NCBI GenBank assembly: GCA_035378845.1 | Contig: DAOSUP010000009.1 | Location: 546 to 64,545 of the forward strand | DNA length: 64,000 bases | Origin: Dictyoglomaceae bacterium | Lineage (GTDB): Bacteria > Dictyoglomota > Dictyoglomia > Dictyoglomales > Dictyoglomaceae | Direction: 5' to 3' | Part shown: positions 3,084-21,969 of the stretch, one piece after another | Numbering within the stretch: position 1 is the stretch's first letter | Layout: every line of letters begins with the position of its first letter | Program-made: the position numbers and the translations under genes | Notes under the pieces: generated by a model | What the model was told of the DNA's origin: nothing | The model's database searches: none | The model's input: the letters and a program-made list of their open reading frames with translations, nothing else

Positions 3084-4429
3084 AGAAGGGAATTATAATC
3101 ACTATCTTACTTTTACTTCTCATAAGTATATCTTTTCCCTCTTCTTTAAAAATAAAGAATGACGAGACCATATACGCACTATTAGACTATGATGGAAAGG
3201 TAAAAAGAGTAGATCTTGTAAACTGGATTGAGATAGAGGGAAGTGGTCACTTTAATATTACCAAGGATGCTAAATACTTGAAAAATATCAAGCTATTTAC
3301 GGAAGATGTAACATTAAGTATCTCATCTCAAAAAATAAATCTTTCAGGAAATTCTCAAGGGCATAAGAATATCTATCTCACTTCCGAAGTAAATAGAAAA
3401 CTTCCTATGCAATTTAAAATCTCATATAAATATAATGGGAAAACAGCAAAGCCTCAAGATTTTCTTGGAAAATCAGGAGATCTTGATATAGAATTTGAGA
3501 TTGAAACTCTTGAAGATATTCCCTTTGTGGTTGTAATCTCTGCTGAATTTTCCACAGATGATTTCATACTTAGAAATCCAGAGGATTGGATGGTAATGGT
3601 GCTTGGAAAAACCATAAGACTTTCTGGTTTTAGCTATCCTATCCCAAAAAGCAGCATTAAGCTCGCCATAAGAGGTAAAAATCTAAAAGTCCCTGACTTT
3701 ACTTTTAGTGCTCTTCCATCTATTCCTCCCGTTGATCTTTCTATAACATCTCAGTTAGGAAGCTTTACAGAAGGTTTAGATGGTCTTATCCTTCTAAACC
3801 AAGTTCATCAGAAGATATTAAAAGGTATCATTGAGAACTTTGAGAAACAGTCTTTTTCTATCCCTCCAGAGTTTTTAACTCTTCCATTTACGCTTAAGGC
3901 AAATCAGAACAAAGCATATGCTATCTCCAATTCTCTAAAAAAATATCCTGAAAGTTTTGAGAAACTATATACCTATATAAAGGAAGAAGCCGAAGGAAGT
4001 AATGATGAGAAATGGCAAAAAGCACTAAATATGGCAGAGGACGTGAAAAAAGAGATAGAAGGAAATTCCTTCTCAGAAGATGTTAAAAGTATAGGGGACT
4101 TTATTGGAGATATCGCCTTTTCCAGCCAAAAAGCCATGAACATGATATCTACCTCATTAGAAGGATTGCAAAAGGTAGAGGAACTTTTGAATATTGTGCT
4201 TAATGGAGGAGAGCTTGAAGGACAAAAAGTTCCAGGGCTTACCGATGTAGAGAAAAATCTAAAAGCCACATCTAAGACATTAAAAGAAAATATTTCAAAG
4301 GCTACCGAGGGCGAGAAAAAGATGGGAATATGGAAGAAAAATATTGCAAATTATAATTTCGCAGGAAAGGTTGAGGGAGCAAGCTCAACAGTAAGATTTT
4401 ACTTCAAATTAGAAGAGCTAAGAAAATAG
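3080..4429 (+). CDS. secreted or membrane-anchored protein of unknown function with an E/K-rich coiled-coil C-terminal half
   Basis: N-terminal hydrophobic signal (MKKGIIITILLLLLISISFPSS). ATGA start/stop overlap with the MMPL gene implies translational coupling. I recognise no family motif. Confidence 0.6.
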   Translation: MKKGIIITILLLLLISISFPSSLKIKNDETIYALLDYDGKVKRVDLVNWIEIEGSGHFNITKDAKYLKNIKLFTEDVTLSISSQKINLSGNSQGHKNIYLTSEVNRKLPMQFKISYKYNGKTAKPQDFLGKSGDLDIEFEIETLEDIPFVVVISAEFSTDDFILRNPEDWMVMVLGKTIRLSGFSYPIPKSSIKLAIRGKNLKVPDFTFSALPSIPPVDLSITSQLGSFTEGLDGLILLNQVHQKILKGIIENFEKQSFSIPPEFLTLPFTLKANQNKAYAISNSLKKYPESFEKLYTYIKEEAEGSNDEKWQKALNMAEDVKKEIEGNSFSEDVKSIGDFIGDIAFSSQKAMNMISTSLEGLQKVEELLNIVLNGGELEGQKVPGLTDVEKNLKATSKTLKENISKATEGEKKMGIWKKNIANYNFAGKVEGASSTVRFYFKLEELRK

Positions 4430-17080: not shown

Positions 17081-18622
17081 CTATCCTAATTTATTTTCTA
17101 TCTCTTTAAGAAGGAGAAGAGCTGAATTTAAAAGAGAATATGTATCAAGGTCCTGAGGAAGAGACTTTGACTTTAATTTAAGAGTATATTCTTCTAACTC
17201 ATTTAGTAAAGATGAGACATCAATCTTAGGTGCTACCTTTTGGGATATAATCTCTTTTTTATCCAGATCTATAGTTTGAGAATAATTAGGAATAATAGTC
17301 TTCTTTCCATTAATCTGTAAAACTTGGCTTAAAACCTGAGAAGATTTAGGCTCACCATGGGTTATTATAAATATAGGATCTCCCTGAAAATTCTCAGCCC
17401 ATTTTAATAGGTCTTTTTGATCTGCATGGGCAGAAAAACCGTTTATAGTATGAATCTTTGCCTTTACATTGATCTCTTCTCCCATAATATAAACCATCTT
17501 TTCTCCATCTACAATCCTTCTTCCAGGGGTTCCTTGAGCTTGATATCCCACAAAAATTACATGAGTATTTTCCTTCCAGAGACTATGCTTTAAATGATGC
17601 AATATTCTTCCTCCTGTACACATACCACTTCCTGCTATAACAATAGCAGAATCTATACTATTTATGCTTTTAGATTCATCTACCGTAGATGCAAATTTCA
17701 AATTATTAAGAGAAAAGGGATCTACACCATCTAAAAGGAATCTCTGAATCTCACCAGAAAGAAGATTACTGTGCTTTTCATAGACCTCTGTTACCTTTTT
17801 ACCCATGGGACTATCAAAAAATACAGGTGTCTTTGAAAGAATAGGATTTTTAAAAGAAAGCAACATAATTTCATATATTACCCTTTGAGCCCTATCTACC
17901 ACAAATGAGGGAATAAGAATCTTACTTCCACTATTTATAGCTTCATTTATTATGCTTTCAAATTCTGCTCTTGTTTCCTCAAGGGTTTTATGTGCCCTAT
18001 CTCCATAAGTAGACTCTATAATCACATAATTTGCACTTTCAATATATGATGGAGCTCCTTCTATCACATTATCTTCCTGTCCTATATCTCCTGAAAAAAC
18101 AATCTTCAAGCCATCTCCCCATACCTCTAAAGATGATGCTCCAAGAATATGTCCAGCATCCCTAAACCTTACTTTTAGATCAGGAAGCTCTATGATCTCA
18201 TCATAGGGCACAGGCTCAAAAAGTTTCATGGCCATTTCCACTTCTTTTTCAGTATAAAGAGGTTCAGTAAGAGGTTTTCCAGATCTTAAATTCTTTCTAT
18301 TTACCCTTTCTACTTCTTCTTTCATAAGCTTTACCGTATCCATCCAGAGAATCTCACAAAGCTCAATGGTAGAAAAAGTAGCATATATCTTTCCTTTAAA
18401 ACCTTCCTTAACAAGCTTTGGAATCCTCCCCGAATGATCTAAATGAGCATGAGTAAGAATAACAGCCTCTATCTCATTAGGATTAAATAGAAATGGTGCC
18501 TCATTTTCCTTTTCAGACTTCCCTTGAAAAGAGCCACAATCTATCAGATATTTTTTCTCATTCTCCAGAAGATAACAAGAACCTGTAACCTCTTCTACAG
18601 CTCCATAAAAAGAAAGACGCAT
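17081..18622 (-). CDS. beta-CASP / metallo-beta-lactamase fold RNA-metabolising hydrolase
   Basis: HAHLDHSG (HxHxDH) motif, beta-CASP middle region and C-terminal GFSAHAD/ITHGE motifs, plus an extra coiled C-terminal tail of about 60 aa. Confidence 0.8.
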   Translation of the reverse strand: MRLSFYGAVEEVTGSCYLLENEKKYLIDCGSFQGKSEKENEAPFLFNPNEIEAVILTHAHLDHSGRIPKLVKEGFKGKIYATFSTIELCEILWMDTVKLMKEEVERVNRKNLRSGKPLTEPLYTEKEVEMAMKLFEPVPYDEIIELPDLKVRFRDAGHILGASSLEVWGDGLKIVFSGDIGQEDNVIEGAPSYIESANYVIIESTYGDRAHKTLEETRAEFESIINEAINSGSKILIPSFVVDRAQRVIYEIMLLSFKNPILSKTPVFFDSPMGKKVTEVYEKHSNLLSGEIQRFLLDGVDPFSLNNLKFASTVDESKSINSIDSAIVIAGSGMCTGGRILHHLKHSLWKENTHVIFVGYQAQGTPGRRIVDGEKMVYIMGEEINVKAKIHTINGFSAHADQKDLLKWAENFQGDPIFIITHGEPKSSQVLSQVLQINGKKTIIPNYSQTIDLDKKEIISQKVAPKIDVSSLLNELEEYTLKLKSKSLPQDLDTYSLLNSALLLLKEIENKLG

Positions 18623-19454: not shown

Positions 19455-20564
19455 TTACTTTTTCACTTTGTATGAATATGTTATGTTATAAGTACTATTC
19501 TTACTAACCTTTACTATAAATCTTATGGTATCCTCATCTATCTTTTCATAAGGATGCGTAGAGCTTAAGATCTGAAAATCACCATAAATATTGTCTAAAA
19601 CTTCAATGGTAACATCTTCATCTTTCCTATTAGTAAGAGTTATCTGGGCAGTAATTGTTTCATAGGTATAATCTTTTATCTTTTCTACCTTCCTATCCAA
19701 GATCTTAGATTCTCCAAGAAGATCAAAATCTTTACCTTGTACTACCTCTATCTTTTCATTCTCAGGAATATCAGAAATATTAGATTCTCCTATGAATACC
19801 ACCTTACCATCATTAAGAGTAAACATCTTTAATGATCCTTGAGGAAGAGGTATGCCAAGCCCATTCTCCTTAGTATTTGCTATAATCCATTTTATAATTG
19901 CATTCTTACTTCCAGAATCCACATCATAGATATATTTTTTCTCTGCATTTTTCACCCAAGCATCTAAAAGAGGAACAATAGTTACACTTCCTTGGGAAAT
20001 ATTCCATTCCCCAGGAAGATTATATATTTTGTATCCTTCCACACTTTCAGGAACTGGCATCGCTAAGCTGAAAGCCTGCTCTGCCATTACTGCCTTACTC
20101 ATAAGAGGAAGCTCATTCCCAACATTCACCCCTCCTGCAAGTACTGATATCTTTGCACCTTGAAAACTCATCCCAGAACTATTCCTTATATTTATATTTG
20201 TATTAAATCTAACCTTTTCTCCGTCTATAAAGACCATATGTTGAGCAGCCCAGTTTATACTTGGTTGTACATAAAAGATCACAAGCTCCTCTTTCATATC
20301 TTCTGGAGATTCTATCATTATTCCTTTTGGTGGATAAAGAATTTCAACAATCTTTGCTTCTTTAAGAGGCAAAATAAAGAAGGAATCAGAGGCAATATTT
20401 TGAGGAATCTCATCAAGAGATACAAAATTTACGCCCTTTTTGAGAGATACCTCCTTAGTAAAAGAGATTACTGCAAAATTATTCTTATATACCACCATAG
20501 AACTCTGGGCAAAAGTCAAAGAAAAAAGAAAAACTAAAACTAAAAGGAAATAGGTAGTCTTCAT
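19455..20564 (-). CDS. secreted DUF4139-like protein, function unknown
   Basis: Signal peptide followed by a beta-rich 369-aa protein. Its overall pattern resembles the DUF4139 (mucoidy-inhibitor-A-like) family from memory; function is unknown. Confidence 0.5.
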   Translation of the reverse strand: MKTTYFLLVLVFLFSLTFAQSSMVVYKNNFAVISFTKEVSLKKGVNFVSLDEIPQNIASDSFFILPLKEAKIVEILYPPKGIMIESPEDMKEELVIFYVQPSINWAAQHMVFIDGEKVRFNTNINIRNSSGMSFQGAKISVLAGGVNVGNELPLMSKAVMAEQAFSLAMPVPESVEGYKIYNLPGEWNISQGSVTIVPLLDAWVKNAEKKYIYDVDSGSKNAIIKWIIANTKENGLGIPLPQGSLKMFTLNDGKVVFIGESNISDIPENEKIEVVQGKDFDLLGESKILDRKVEKIKDYTYETITAQITLTNRKDEDVTIEVLDNIYGDFQILSSTHPYEKIDEDTIRFIVKVSKNSTYNITYSYKVKK

Positions 20565-20669
20565 GTTTATTTCCTCCTCAATTTAATTCTTTATTCCCCT
20601 TCTTAAATTATAACACACTGCTATGTCGCCCACCTTACGGATATTTTTAATAGAAAGGAGGTGAGAAAA

Positions 20670-20891
20670 ATGGCATTACAATCTATACCTTTTAATTCCC
20701 GTCTCACACTTAAAGTACAGGTAGGTACCCAGCAGGGACGACCTGTATTAAGATCCAGAAGTTTTAACAACATAAAGCATACAGCCACAGATGAAGCTGT
20801 ACACTTGGTAGGTCAAACCTTAGGAAGTCTTCAGAAATATCCTTTAGTACAGATCTTAAGGGCTAACGACGAAGAACTACTGGAGATCTAA
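20670..20891 (+). CDS. DUF1659-family small protein
   Basis: 73 aa, MALQSIPFNSRLTLKVQVGTQQGRPVLRSRSFNNIKHTATDEAV..., which matches my memory of the DUF1659 pattern. ATG 20670 lies 9 nt after AAAGGAGG; the track begins at GTG 20661. Confidence 0.7.
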   Translation: MALQSIPFNSRLTLKVQVGTQQGRPVLRSRSFNNIKHTATDEAVHLVGQTLGSLQKYPLVQILRANDEELLEI

Positions 20892-20932
20892 AAACTTTCC
20901 CAAAAAATTTATAAGAAAGGAGGGATAAAAAT

Positions 20933-21163
20933 ATGGCAACCTACTCTTCAAGAAAATATATCCGAATGGTATTTCAGGATAGTGGAGGCGGAAGCTTTAC
21001 CTTAAGAGTCCCTGATCCAAAAGATGATGTAACAGAACAAGAGATACTAAATGCTATGGATACTATTATCGCTCAGAACATCTTCCAAGGAAGATCAGGA
21101 GACTTGGTAGCTAAAGTAGATGCAAGAGTTGTTGAGACCAATATAAGCGATTACTACGACTAA
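20933..21163 (+). CDS. DUF2922-family small protein
   Basis: 76 aa, ...RMVFQDSGGGSFTLRVPDPKDDVTEQEILNAMDTIIAQNIF..., a DUF2922-type pattern. AAGGAGGG RBS. Confidence 0.7.
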   Translation: MATYSSRKYIRMVFQDSGGGSFTLRVPDPKDDVTEQEILNAMDTIIAQNIFQGRSGDLVAKVDARVVETNISDYYD

Positions 21164-21212
21164 AAAATAGGGGGTGAAGAACTTCACCCCCTTAAAAAAG
21201 GAGGCAATTTAC

Positions 21213-21443
21213 ATGTTTGAAAAACTGGTCCAAAAGATACAATTTAAATTCAGCTTTTTATATCAAACTTTTCCTAATTATACATGTAAATTCTGCAGGG
21301 AAAAGAAGAATTTCATGTTCTTTATAGATGACAACCCCATATGTCCTGAATGTCTTCCTAAATTCTTTGAGAAGGAATTGATACCTCTCATCATATCCAA
21401 GGTAATTCTTAGTTTAGAAGATAAGGAGGGAAAAGATGCTTAA
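21213..21443 (+). CDS. small zinc-ribbon protein, unknown function
   Basis: 76 aa from ATG 21213, which lies after AAAAGGAGG. Two CxxC pairs (CKFC...CPEC). Confidence 0.6.
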   Translation: MFEKLVQKIQFKFSFLYQTFPNYTCKFCREKKNFMFFIDDNPICPECLPKFFEKELIPLIISKVILSLEDKEGKDA

Positions 21444-21771
21444 GACAAATGCCATAAAAATATCTAAAAATTTCTATCTTTCTGACTTCCAATGTAGATG
21501 TTGCCAAAGAGTAATGATCCATCCTGATCTTTTGGAAAAGATGGATCGGTTAAGTGAAGAGGTAAAGGAAAAAATTCAAATAACCAGTGGATACCGATGT
21601 GAAAAGCACAATAAAGAAGTGGGAGGTGTACCTAATTCAAAACATACAAAAGGACTCGCCTGTGATCTTACCTGCAAAAATCTAAAAGAGACATATGAGA
21701 TTGTAAAGAAACTTGGATTTTCCTTTACCAAGCTTGATGAAAGGAAAAAATATATCCATGTGGAGGTGTAA
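21436..21771 (+). CDS. peptidase M15A-like (D-Ala-D-Ala carboxypeptidase / endolysin-type) zinc hydrolase
   Basis: 111 aa with SGYRCEKHNKEVGGVPNSKHTKGLACDL and a terminal YIHVEV motif (H...D...H zinc ligands of the M15 fold). It has no signal peptide. It overlaps the previous gene by 8 nt. Confidence 0.75.
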   Translation: MLKTNAIKISKNFYLSDFQCRCCQRVMIHPDLLEKMDRLSEEVKEKIQITSGYRCEKHNKEVGGVPNSKHTKGLACDLTCKNLKETYEIVKKLGFSFTKLDERKKYIHVEV

Positions 21772-21773
21772 AT

Positions 21774-21926
21774 ATGGAGGAGTGGATAACATTAATAAGC
21801 AACTTAGGGTTTCCTATAGTAGTATCCCTTATACTTCTTGTAAGAATAGAGACTCGCCTTGAAAATCTTACAAAAGCTATAAATGAACTTTCCCAGGCAA
21901 TAGTCTCCTTTAAAACCACAAGATGA
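21774..21926 (+). CDS. YvrJ-family small membrane protein (50 aa, absent from the ORF track)
   Basis: ATG 21774 to TGA 21924-21926 gives MEEWITLISNLGFPIVVSLILLVRIETRLENLTKAINELSQAIVSFKTTR. It has one TM helix followed by an amphipathic tail, and the W..L..N.GFP motif is typical of YvrJ. It starts 2 nt after the M15 peptidase stop. Confidence 0.7.
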   Translation: MEEWITLISNLGFPIVVSLILLVRIETRLENLTKAINELSQAIVSFKTTR

Positions 21927-21937
21927 CATCTAAAAAA

Positions 21938-21969
21938 TCCGGCTTCAGAAGTTTATATCTGAAGCCGGA
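21938..21969. terminator. perfect 12-bp hairpin closing the small-protein operon
   Basis: tccggcttcaga / tctgaagccgga with an 8-nt loop. An A6 run lies on the left and there is no T-run on the right, so the canonical U-tract is on the minus-strand reading. Confidence 0.55.

Follow-up and report, generated by a model that had tools for sequence, protein, structure and literature searches.

What purpose do five very small genes serve that are packed closely together in a Dictyoglomaceae genome? The genes, named O1 to O5 here, are located between positions 20670 and 21926 of the window, i.e. the 64-kb stretch of contig DAOSUP010000009.1 that was analysed as a whole; all coordinates without a locus prefix are positions within this window. 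In a preliminary description they had been read as a five-gene operon of a host outside the Firmicutes, which agrees with the assignment to the Dictyoglomaceae, and as a conserved peptidoglycan-directed module. The answer we favour, with belief and doubt in even balance, is that a cassette occurring in several phyla is represented by this locus in the Dictyoglomota. This cassette would be a holin/endolysin-type module, domesticated from phage lysis, used for envelope opening and gated by a pair of proteins like SroA and SroB of Staphylococcus aureus.

All five open reading frames (ORFs) were found intact on the plus strand with the sizes and gaps described before, spaced by 41, 49, -8 and 2 nt (Table 1). 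In profile searches four products exceeded the Pfam gathering thresholds of the families that had been proposed for them: O1 matched DUF1659 (PF07872; 78.5 bits, gathering 24.1, E-value 3.5e-22, residues 5-71 of 73), O2 DUF2922 (PF11148; 86.0 bits, gathering 25.5, 1.6e-24), O4 Peptidase_M15_3 (61.1 bits, gathering 23.2, 1.3e-16) and O5 YvrJ (PF12841; 66.6 bits, gathering 29.5, 1.4e-18). A GGAGG-type ribosome-binding site precedes each of the five genes and not only the first three, as had been noted. The Shine-Dalgarno sequence of O4, AAGGAGGG, lies within O3 and that of O5, GGAGGTG, within O4. The identical five-gene order was detected in every Dictyoglomota locus retrieved (L001-L013, L015, L017, L018); synteny is kept upstream of these loci, and the genes downstream vary. 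For all five genes the pairwise ratios of nonsynonymous to synonymous substitution rates (dN/dS) between five diverged Dictyoglomota lineages amounted to 0.04-0.24 where dS was estimable, the synonymous sites being saturated in many distant pairs. Hence, the five genes are functional and under purifying selection.

Table 1. Position and description of the features of the locus in the window
Feature	Position	Strand	Description
Upstream control region	20565-20669	+	conserved footprint across Dictyoglomota
Footprint part TATTTTTAATAGAA	20642-20655	+	from five-species alignment
Footprint part, Shine-Dalgarno AAGGAGGTG	20655-20663	+	from five-species alignment
O1	20670-20891	+	73 aa, DUF1659 protein
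O2	20933-21163	+	76 aa, DUF2922 protein
Internal hairpin	21169-21192	+	10-bp G+C-rich stem directly after the O2 stop
O3	21213-21443	+	76 aa from ATG, orphan CxxC...CxxC zinc-ribbon protein
O4	21436-21771	+	111 aa, signal-less M15A/Peptidase_M15_3 zinc peptidase, endolysin type
O5	21774-21926	+	50 aa, YvrJ-family membrane protein
Closing hairpin	21938-21969	+	12-bp stem after O5

The distribution of this gene set was investigated with two censuses. For the first, species genomes were anchored on YvrJ, and the best 80 of 260 loci were evaluated. DUF1659, DUF2922 and YvrJ follow each other in this order in 64 of these 80 loci, mostly in Clostridia and Tissierellia, which confirms the co-occurrence in Firmicutes that had been stated for the three families. 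In 60 loci the contig leaves room for a sigma factor gene (about 187 aa, sigma-70 regions 2 and 4, extracytoplasmic function (ECF) superfamily), and in 36 of them one is located at most 400 nt upstream. The combination of M15 peptidase and zinc ribbon was found in three of the 80 loci only, all from Dictyoglomota; the Firmicutes form is reduced to sigma-DUF1659-DUF2922-YvrJ without a linked peptidase. Recurrent Firmicutes neighbours, among them metK, recD2/yrrC, comFC, flgM and flgN, were rejected as members and attributed to housekeeping synteny. A protein of about 200 aa without Pfam or NCBIfam match is encoded right after YvrJ and before recD2/yrrC in 37-40 Firmicutes loci (e.g. L066:6326-6919), which comprise the majority of the Clostridia and Tissierellia cassettes. 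It is a possible additional member; no homologue of it was found in the window. In eight Clostridium loci of the C. tertium and C. sartagoforme group (L023, L042, L044, L046, L057 and others) YvrJ is preceded by a 199-aa DUF1836 protein, not by DUF1659 and DUF2922.

From the first census the M15 gene appeared as a Dictyoglomota-specific insertion. This explanation was overturned by look-ups anchored on M15 and by a metagenome scan; the YvrJ pattern applied in the first census, NLGFPI[VA][IV]S, had left out the YvrJ variants of Atribacterota and Synergistota. Among the nearest M15 homologues outside Dictyoglomus, P0024, P0052, P0028, P0034 and P0023 adjoin YvrJ, DUF2922 or both, in two gene orders. 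Another one, P0022 with 48% identity, is located on a T7-like phage contig. In the second census metagenomes were scanned with an alignment of cassette-type M15 sequences, and 79 of the best 80 among at least 570 loci were counted. YvrJ was detected within 400 nt of the M15 gene in 64 of these 79 loci, with M15 first in 59 and YvrJ first in five; eight of the 15 exceptions are truncated contigs. Among the loci with enough upstream sequence, DUF2922 was present in 34 of 49, DUF1659 in 29 of 42 and a sigma gene in 23 of 36. According to the names of cluster members, the low-G+C loci belong to Candidatus Atribacteria and the high-G+C loci to Synergistales/Cloacibacillus. Recurrent linkage of the M15 gene with DUF1659, DUF2922 and YvrJ, on which the preliminary description had let its proposal depend, is thus found in Atribacterota, Synergistota and unassigned lineages. 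Judged by gene content, the trio is not peptidoglycan-directed in all cases, since the Firmicutes form is without the peptidase.

The gene order differs between the phyla. In Atribacterota an OmpR-type winged-helix protein, a DnaD-like helix-turn-helix protein, sigma-2 (about 108 aa) and sigma-4 (about 67 aa) are followed by DUF1659, DUF2922, an LL-H-type holin, M15 and a YvrJ protein of about 89 aa with a long coiled coil. The order in Synergistota is DUF1659, DUF2922, YvrJ, M15 and an unsplit sigma factor of about 160 aa. Compared with these cassettes, the window contains DUF1659, DUF2922, a variable gene X with M15, and YvrJ in the defining order, as well as a hairpin after DUF2922; no adjacent sigma gene was found with a model of the Firmicutes cassette sigmas. 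Three Atribacterota-type loci (L162, L165 and L166, 833-3889) have M15-YvrJ without the DUF pair, preceded by a 1018-aa DEAD-box helicase. The C-terminus of this helicase contains a Trans_reg_C domain and a segment like LL-H-type holins (PHROG 6918, 3e-4).

As control, the best 80 M15_3 loci on viral contigs were examined, and 77 of them were without YvrJ, DUF1659 and DUF2922. The three exceptions are a Synergistota-type cassette on a contig labelled as viral (L195), a locus with only a sigma-like ORF on the opposite strand (L224) and one locus without a called M15 ORF. In a neighbour-joining tree the cassette-linked M15 sequences including O4 form one clade apart from the viral M15 sequences (100% bootstrap). 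Within this clade every phylum is monophyletic, with a support of 100% for Dictyoglomota, 99% for Atribacterota and 75% for Synergistota. The single clade with monophyletic phyla indicates that the association is old and largely vertical and does not result from repeated recent captures from phages.

The peptidase O4 had been described as a signal-less M15A-type zinc peptidase, and this description was corroborated by the Pfam match, the zinc ligands, the fold and the absence of any hydrophobic segment, signal peptide or transmembrane segment. The strongest profile match was obtained with PHROG 894, annotated as endolysin (2.9e-28). Of the zinc ligand motif H-x6-D...H, H70 does not vary among 40 homologues, and D77 and H108 are shared by at least 90% of them; H-x is followed by Glu in Dictyoglomota (HVE) and by Asp in most homologues. 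An additional conserved Cys/His cluster, C20/C22/C23/C55/H58 (FxCxCC ... GYRCxxHN; 21493-21504 and 21598-21609), invariant or nearly so in this M15_3 subfamily, suggests a second, structural metal site. The AlphaFold2 (AF2) model, with a predicted local distance difference test (pLDDT) value of 94.5, shows the LAS fold. Foldseek matched it to the zinc D-Ala-D-Ala carboxypeptidase of Streptomyces albus (1LBU, TMq 0.68; 1.1e-8 in the profile search), hedgehog N-domains, LysECD7, Ply500, LysB4, Serratia ChiX and VanXY enzymes, and the best BFVD matches were phage M15 peptidases (2e-11, TM 0.86). O4 is predicted to be an endolysin-type LAS/M15 zinc peptidase with all catalytic residues kept.

A peptidase without export signal could also act in the cytoplasm, like VanX/VanY on D-Ala-D-Ala or on UDP-MurNAc-peptide precursors, and the adjacency to YvrJ would then be meaningless mechanistically. 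The missing signal peptide, 1LBU as the best solved relative, the VanXY enzymes among the fold matches and the NCBI name of the orthologues ('D-Ala-D-Ala carboxypeptidase family metallohydrolase') are in line with such a role. We regard it as very improbable, however: M15 and YvrJ are adjacent in 64/79 loci, in both orders and across phyla, phage endolysins gave the strongest profile match (2.9e-28), the peptidase unit of Atribacterota includes an LL-H-type holin, and no resistance-type or ligase genes are located near the locus in the window.

O5 begins 2 nt after the peptidase gene and is the sole membrane protein among the five. It consists of one transmembrane helix (residues 5-23, KD19 hydropathy 2.35) and a short amphipathic helix at the C-terminus; the amphipathic tail of 27 residues includes about four basic and three acidic ones and is shorter and less charged than in classical holins. 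The protein contains the invariant core motif NLGFP...LL.RIE and matched PHROG 4898, annotated as holin (8e-8). With tblastn, YvrJ homologues were found in 33 records of phi29-like Bacillus phages, many of them annotated as holin, and in phage QCM11 (Claudivirus) the homologue is located between two endolysin genes. In IMG/VR 11 podovirus-type contigs with a YvrJ homologue were detected; three were checked and contain Gp16 encapsidation genes. A wall hydrolase is encoded by the next gene after YvrJ in 10 of these 11 contigs, namely GH25 with LysM in four, Amidase_3 with SPOR in three and NlpC/P60 or CHAP in three. With M15 counted, YvrJ is paired with at least four unrelated hydrolase families. 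Such pairing would be expected of a holin-type gate rather than of an enzyme-specific subunit. We regard YvrJ as a candidate holin-like or holin-accessory protein, and the membrane gate that had been considered among the roles of the small subunits fits a sole membrane protein that takes the holin slot in phages.

The arrangement resembles the phi29-like Bacillus podoviruses such as QCM11, where a single-pass YvrJ-family protein is encoded by the side of a signal-less hydrolase, with ORFs that often overlap or nearly abut. The M15_3 enzyme type is also common among phage endolysins. In contrast to these phages, the cassette is chromosomal without other phage genes around, its DUF1659 and DUF2922 genes were not found in isolated phage genomes (tblastn with DUF2922 gave no match), and its hydrolase is an M15 enzyme of a clade separate from the viral ones instead of GH25, Amidase_3 or NlpC/CHAP.

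The first two genes encode small proteins of complementary charge. O1 is basic (isoelectric point (pI) 9.5) without transmembrane segment, with a dN/dS of 0.06-0.22 between the Dictyoglomota lineages; O2 is acidic (pI 4.55; dN/dS 0.04-0.13) and matched PHROG 21372 (8e-14). Neither contains a signal peptide. A paralogous origin of DUF1659 and DUF2922 was dismissed (hhalign probability 0.2%), and no PDB relative was found for either family. O2 belongs to the same family as SroB of S. aureus. O1 is a member of the Pfam family of SroA; with 12.7 bits it is below the cutoff of 80 of the NCBIfam SroA equivalog NF049869 and is by this score not an SroA orthologue. The ECF sigma factor SigS induces both SroA and SroB about 1000-fold; the two proteins interact in the two-hybrid assay and modulate sigS mRNA stability with opposing effects on sigS mRNA (bioRxiv 10.1101/2022.10.19.512975). 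Furthermore, yvrJ of Bacillus subtilis is a member of the SigO-RsoA regulon and located next to the sigma genes. The earlier statement that none of the three families DUF1659, DUF2922 and YvrJ has an assigned function is out of date with regard to SroA/SroB, the SigO-RsoA regulon and the annotation of phage holins.

The likeness to SigS-SroAB concerns the tandem of DUF1659 followed by DUF2922 with strong Shine-Dalgarno sites. In addition, the S. aureus pair is a direct target of an ECF-type sigma factor, and the pair of the cassette relatives is located directly downstream of a sigma gene (bioRxiv 10.1101/2022.10.19.512975 for S. aureus). The systems differ, as the S. aureus sroAB bicistron is without peptidase or YvrJ, O1 does not reach the SroA cutoff, and no sigma factor was found in the window with a hidden Markov model (HMM) built from the Firmicutes cassette sigmas. 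This model gave no match for a cassette-type sigma in the window even at E<=10; the Atribacterota and Synergistota sigmas were not searched. For the Dictyoglomota loci L001, L002, L012, L015, L017 and L018 it likewise gave no match, here at E<=1e-3. A dedicated sigma factor, the defining partner of the cassette elsewhere and not foreseen in the preliminary description, was hence not detected in the window by the Firmicutes model.

In the Atribacterota the sigma factor is split. The two ORFs overlap or abut (L156:2012-2344 and 2341-2541; L181:1945-2271 and 2309-2512; about 20 further loci among L111-L190), and this form was present in 20 of the 36 loci that extend far enough upstream. The natural split recalls SigO-RsoA of B. 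subtilis, whose regulon includes yvrJ. Both systems connect YvrJ with a small sigma factor of an unusual kind, which in Atribacterota has separate sigma-2 and sigma-4 ORFs; there the sigma-2 part comes first. In a review the SigO-RsoA regulon is listed with oxdC-yvrL, yvrJ and the sigma operon only, without a peptidase and without a DUF1659/DUF2922 pair, and shared ancestry of the two split sigmas is supported only at the level of the sigma-70 superfamily.

The frequent sigma linkage could also be read as envelope-stress signalling, with YvrJ as a membrane sensor or anti-sigma-like element, DUF1659/DUF2922 feeding back on the sigma mRNA, and M15 making or destroying a peptidoglycan-fragment signal. 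A sigma gene in cis in 36/60 Firmicutes and 23/36 metagenome loci with room, yvrJ adjoining the sigma genes within the SigO-RsoA regulon, SroA/SroB as SigS targets that feed back on SigS, and a Firmicutes form wholly without hydrolase speak for it. Nevertheless, we hold this role to be unlikely: phages place YvrJ homologues next to endolysins with no sigma nearby, Atribacterota cassettes carry a phage-type holin, the M15 subfamily is of the endolysin type, and the Dictyoglomota cassette is without a sigma in cis as judged by the Firmicutes model.

How the cassette of the window might be controlled was considered from its non-coding elements. Upstream of O1 an alignment of five Dictyoglomota species revealed a conserved footprint consisting of TGTCGCCCACC (20624-20634), a spacer of about 16-17 nt and TATTTAATAG, with the further parts listed in Table 1. 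The spacing of these parts is reminiscent of a promoter that a non-housekeeping sigma factor would use, with a -35 element unusually rich in G+C; a scan for the sigma-70 consensus called no promoter at the footprint. The 11-mer TGTCGCCCACC occurs only once in the window, so no second copy beyond its own site marks a regulon there. Pairing of the conserved GCCCACC with the ribosome-binding site of O1 was considered as an anti-Shine-Dalgarno structure; RNAalifold gave no consensus structure on an alignment that was poor in the Shine-Dalgarno region.

Upstream motifs were also observed in other lineages, and those of Tissierellia, Atribacterota and Dictyoglomota are all different. The 40-nt gap between sigma and DUF1659 in Tissierellia (L022, L024, L034, L048, L050 and others) contains AATAGTAAAATA, about 13 nt, TCTATATAAG and TAGAAGGAGG, a candidate for a sigma-dependent promoter or leader. 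About 60 nt upstream of DUF1659 the Atribacterota (L111-L190, e.g. L156, L160, L190) have a leader of strong conservation, TTACTCATTACCCCTCAC..ATTACGC. Next comes the perfect palindrome AATTAACCnGCnGGTTAATT, with compensatory variants like CTAATTGGC...GCCAATTAG, directly before the Shine-Dalgarno sequence. This palindrome could be an operator or a hairpin of the 5' untranslated region.

The perfect 12-bp hairpin that had been reported to close the set is present; of its 12 pairs seven are G-C, the loop comprises eight nucleotides, and a hairpin after YvrJ was found in five of five Dictyoglomota species. Its T-run is on the minus strand, and the plus strand is without a U-tract. A second hairpin, overlooked before, is located between O2 and O3. 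Its stem, AGGGGGTGAAG...CTTCACCCCCT, begins 6 nt past the O2 stop and ends 20 nt before the ATG of O3, whose longest ORF starts earlier with a GTG at 21174. All five Dictyoglomota species have a perfect G+C-rich stem of 8-10 bp no more than about 12 nt away from the DUF2922 stop. As each species has its own stem sequence, the structure is conserved and not the sequence. Most Firmicutes trio loci likewise have a hairpin after DUF2922, in many cases with a T-run behind it. It was also found in L107, in L109, in some of the Atribacterota loci and in six of the six Synergistota loci where DUF2922 was called; over all these metagenome loci z was <= -2.5 in 25/46.

The internal hairpin is a candidate attenuator, leaky terminator or mRNA-stabilising element. 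The mere 20 nt between it and the start of O3 leave no space for a further promoter, so that O3 to O5 could be transcribed solely by read-through. The locus is bipartite, with a putative regulator pair followed by a peptidase unit that would be conditionally or weakly expressed. Of the five-gene operon proposed before, the five genes remain as described, and the single unit does not, the hairpin parting DUF1659-DUF2922 from the peptidase unit. On the plus strand an A-run is located ahead of each of the two hairpins, and they score as intrinsic terminators only on the minus strand, where there is no gene to use them. In Synergistota (L124, about 3650-3770; L118, L110, L136) a hydrophobic, Arg-rich micro-ORF of about 27 aa with its own Shine-Dalgarno sequence, e.g. 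MQKIRKILRAALGALAFAARLLGGRRR, was noticed between the post-DUF2922 hairpin and YvrJ; alternatively, this region may form a G+C-rich RNA structure.

The zinc-ribbon protein O3 does not belong to the conserved set as had been assumed. Only seven homologues were detected, all from Dictyoglomaceae, and a profile search of 1.84 billion representative proteins with O3 retrieved its own cluster only. With 13 bits for Pfam Zn_ribbon_8 (threshold 34.4) and 12.8 bits for TIGR02605 (threshold 31.3), O3 is by sequence outside the FmdB/Zn_ribbon_8 family and shares only the CxxC...CxxC pattern, whose four Cys do not vary among the seven orthologues. The AF2 model (pLDDT 67) contains beta hairpins (18-43) and a helix (45-69); Foldseek gave generic zinc fingers at E>1 and nothing significant. 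Neither these fold data nor the profile search, which gave no family, assigned a function to O3.

By its position O3 fills the variable slot X of the cassette, which is occupied differently elsewhere. The slot between DUF2922 and M15 in Atribacterota encodes a 126-aa protein with an N-terminal transmembrane segment (L181:3471-3851, L156:3512-3973) that resembles LL-H-type holins (PHROG 6918, 4.7e-6; Pfam Phage_holin_6_1, 3.8e-4, below threshold). A slot protein of this holin-like kind was found in 47 of the 65 metagenome loci with room for it, and L108 and L109 have an unrelated 58-aa helical protein there. O3 and O4 overlap by 8 nt, which is consistent with translational coupling. O3 is most likely a stoichiometric partner of the peptidase (chaperone or inhibitor) or a local regulator.

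From the anatomy of the locus and the comparative linkage we infer the following course for the favoured holin/endolysin-type module; it covers transcription, regulator pair, hairpin and peptidase with YvrJ. Transcription would start upstream of O1, driven in relatives by the sigma factor of the cassette and here by a factor encoded elsewhere. The first products would be the basic DUF1659 and the acidic DUF2922 protein, an interacting pair of the SroA/SroB type that could serve as timer or regulator. The hairpin after DUF2922 would limit or condition read-through into the unit of O3, M15 and YvrJ. The pair might gate expression, possibly at this hairpin, by the effect on mRNA stability reported for SroA. 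The signal-less M15A-type peptidase would accumulate in the cytoplasm, with O3 coupled to it as partner or local regulator in the slot that elsewhere holds the LL-H-type holin. As holin or holin accessory, YvrJ would let the peptidase reach the peptidoglycan, where stem peptides or cross-links would be cut. The outcome would be a controlled opening of the wall, i.e. autolysis of a subpopulation or release of contents, vesicles or cargo.

Several points weigh against this explanation. Dictyoglomota have an outer envelope, and no spanin-like gene is present in the cassette, which counts against full phage-style lysis. The holin label on phage YvrJ proteins is an annotation by position, and the C-terminus of the 50-aa YvrJ protein is short, weakly charged and atypical for canonical holins. 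Atribacterota also carry an LL-H-type holin, so that YvrJ may be an accessory rather than the pore. In the Firmicutes the YvrJ trio is without a linked hydrolase, and the role of YvrJ there is independent of the M15 peptidase. The internal hairpin is without a U-tract here, and its role in termination or attenuation is conjecture. In the search with the Firmicutes-sigma HMM no sigma factor was found in the window. Finally, SroA and SroB of S. aureus act in the control of sigma mRNA stability and not in lysis (bioRxiv 10.1101/2022.10.19.512975).

Among described systems, type 10 secretion of Serratia marcescens (ChiW/ChiX; PMC4259817, PMC5778951) and Yersinia entomophaga (PMC10847048) is comparable, as a domesticated holin-like protein is combined with a small LAS-fold zinc endopeptidase in a diderm without a full prophage. 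Here, too, genes for a predicted holin-like protein and a hydrolase occur together outside a prophage. In contrast to type 10 secretion, there is no evident cargo such as a chitinase or toxin and no spanin-like ChiY/ChiZ, and the holin family is another one. The DUF1659/DUF2922 pair, which is a candidate cargo only, and the dedicated sigma factor of the relatives are further differences. The pathogenicity locus (PaLoc) of Clostridioides difficile with TcdR, TcdE and TcdL (PMC12485765, PMC10516005) likewise unites an alternative sigma factor, a holin-like gene and an endolysin-derived gene in one locus that releases signal-less proteins. It differs by its large toxin cargo, TcdE belongs to another holin family, and TcdL is a fragment, unlike O4 with all its catalytic residues.

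These parallels raise the question of non-lytic secretion resembling type 10, with YvrJ, in part together with the LL-H-type holin, and M15 opening a local gate and DUF1659/DUF2922 as the exported cargo, i.e. a toxin, a signal or a bacteriocin-like pair. The pairing of a holin with a LAS-family endopeptidase corresponds to Serratia ChiW/ChiX (PMC4259817, PMC5778951), ChiX being among the structural matches of O4, and the order of sigma factor, small products, holin and endolysin-like gene is similar to the clostridial TcdR-TcdE-TcdL loci (PMC12485765). The DUF1659 and DUF2922 proteins are signal-less and always encoded first, before the hairpin, and would be abundant products; the absence of a spanin gene from the cassette also agrees with this role. 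It appears improbable in view of SroA/SroB, which act intracellularly on sigS mRNA and are encoded in S. aureus as a bicistron without lysis genes. Moreover, the DUF1659 and DUF2922 sequences have no toxin or bacteriocin character, and neither family has a PDB relative.

A three-part logic similar to that of the Atribacterota cassettes is known from the lysis genes xhlA-xhlB-xlyA of the defective B. subtilis prophage PBSX. There, the small coiled-coil, membrane-associated XhlA assists holin and endolysin under the control of the phage-derived sigma-like activator Xpf; PBSX as a whole is a full particle-producing element. LL-H-type holin, M15 and coiled-coil YvrJ of Atribacterota are comparable with it in this logic.

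The possibility of a decaying prophage lysis remnant without present function was considered as well, because M15 and YvrJ have phage affinities and the Atribacterota relatives adjoin a DnaD-like gene resembling a replication initiator. Against this stand the intactness of all five ORFs across five diverged lineages of Dictyoglomota, their dN/dS of 0.04-0.24 at saturated synonymous sites, conserved translational coupling and hairpins, the housekeeping flanks and a G+C content equal to the surroundings, and the monophyly of M15 within each phylum. The G+C content of the cassette is that of its flanks, its chromosomal site is syntenic in another species, and no structural, terminase or integrase genes of prophages were found among the flanking genes. 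A remnant is hardly credible and was rejected on flanking genes, synteny, G+C content and dN/dS.

The cassette belongs to no described system: it is located outside a prophage, matches no PADLOC model, O1 is not an SroA equivalog, and neither cargo nor spanin genes were identified. It comes closest to a phage lysis pair that has been domesticated or to type 10 secretion such as ChiW/ChiX, joined with regulatory themes of SigS-SroAB and SigO-YvrJ. Of the eight papers that a search of full texts gave for DUF1659, DUF2922 or YvrJ, none contains a description of this gene set. The three are widespread families of small proteins with almost no functional literature. In three phyla outside the Firmicutes the trio is linked physically and evolutionarily to one M15 clade and to a dedicated, sometimes split sigma factor. 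If the favoured explanation is true, a regulated holin/peptidase system of poorly studied thermophilic and subsurface lineages would join type 10 secretion and the release of vesicles or toxins by explosive lysis in the growing class of phage lysis modules that have been domesticated. The virulence circuit SigS-SroAB of S. aureus and the membership of yvrJ in the SigO regulon of B. subtilis, so far unexplained, would gain a mechanistic frame, and natural examples of two-subunit sigma factors would be added.

A wider proposal, which we consider rather doubtful, is that SigS-SroAB of S. aureus, SigO-RsoA-YvrJ of B. subtilis and the Dictyoglomus locus are fragments of one ancient sigma-driven envelope-opening system. 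A pair of the SroA/SroB type would control read-through at the hairpin and thereby fire the YvrJ gate and M15. The complete form would have survived in the diderm anaerobes of the Atribacterota, Synergistota and Dictyoglomota, sometimes with a two-subunit sigma factor. If so, a new regulated lysis or secretion system and the first molecular roles for three families of unknown function would result.

Two classes of known elements were dropped for the locus. PADLOC gave zero matches to any cassette protein, which dismisses a known anti-phage defence system, and in Rfam the leader and both hairpins scored below the gathering values, so that none of them corresponds to a known RNA element. With regard to the genomic setting, the divergent gene string across shared intergenic DNA was found as reported: a divergent 369-aa gene ends at 20564, 105 bp from O1. 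This side of the cassette is flanked by genes of the DUF4139-like, Fer4_5, beta-CASP and M28 kinds, the opposite side by GH1 and RluA-type genes. The beta-CASP/RMMBL gene with metallo-beta-lactamase fold (RNase J/CPSF type; 17081-18622, minus strand) is located near the Dictyoglomota cassette, and such a gene is also found near the cassette of the unassigned lineage L109 (L109:3337-4911). This nearness may be chance; it is possibly relevant as SroA of S. aureus was proposed to be an RNase inhibitor.

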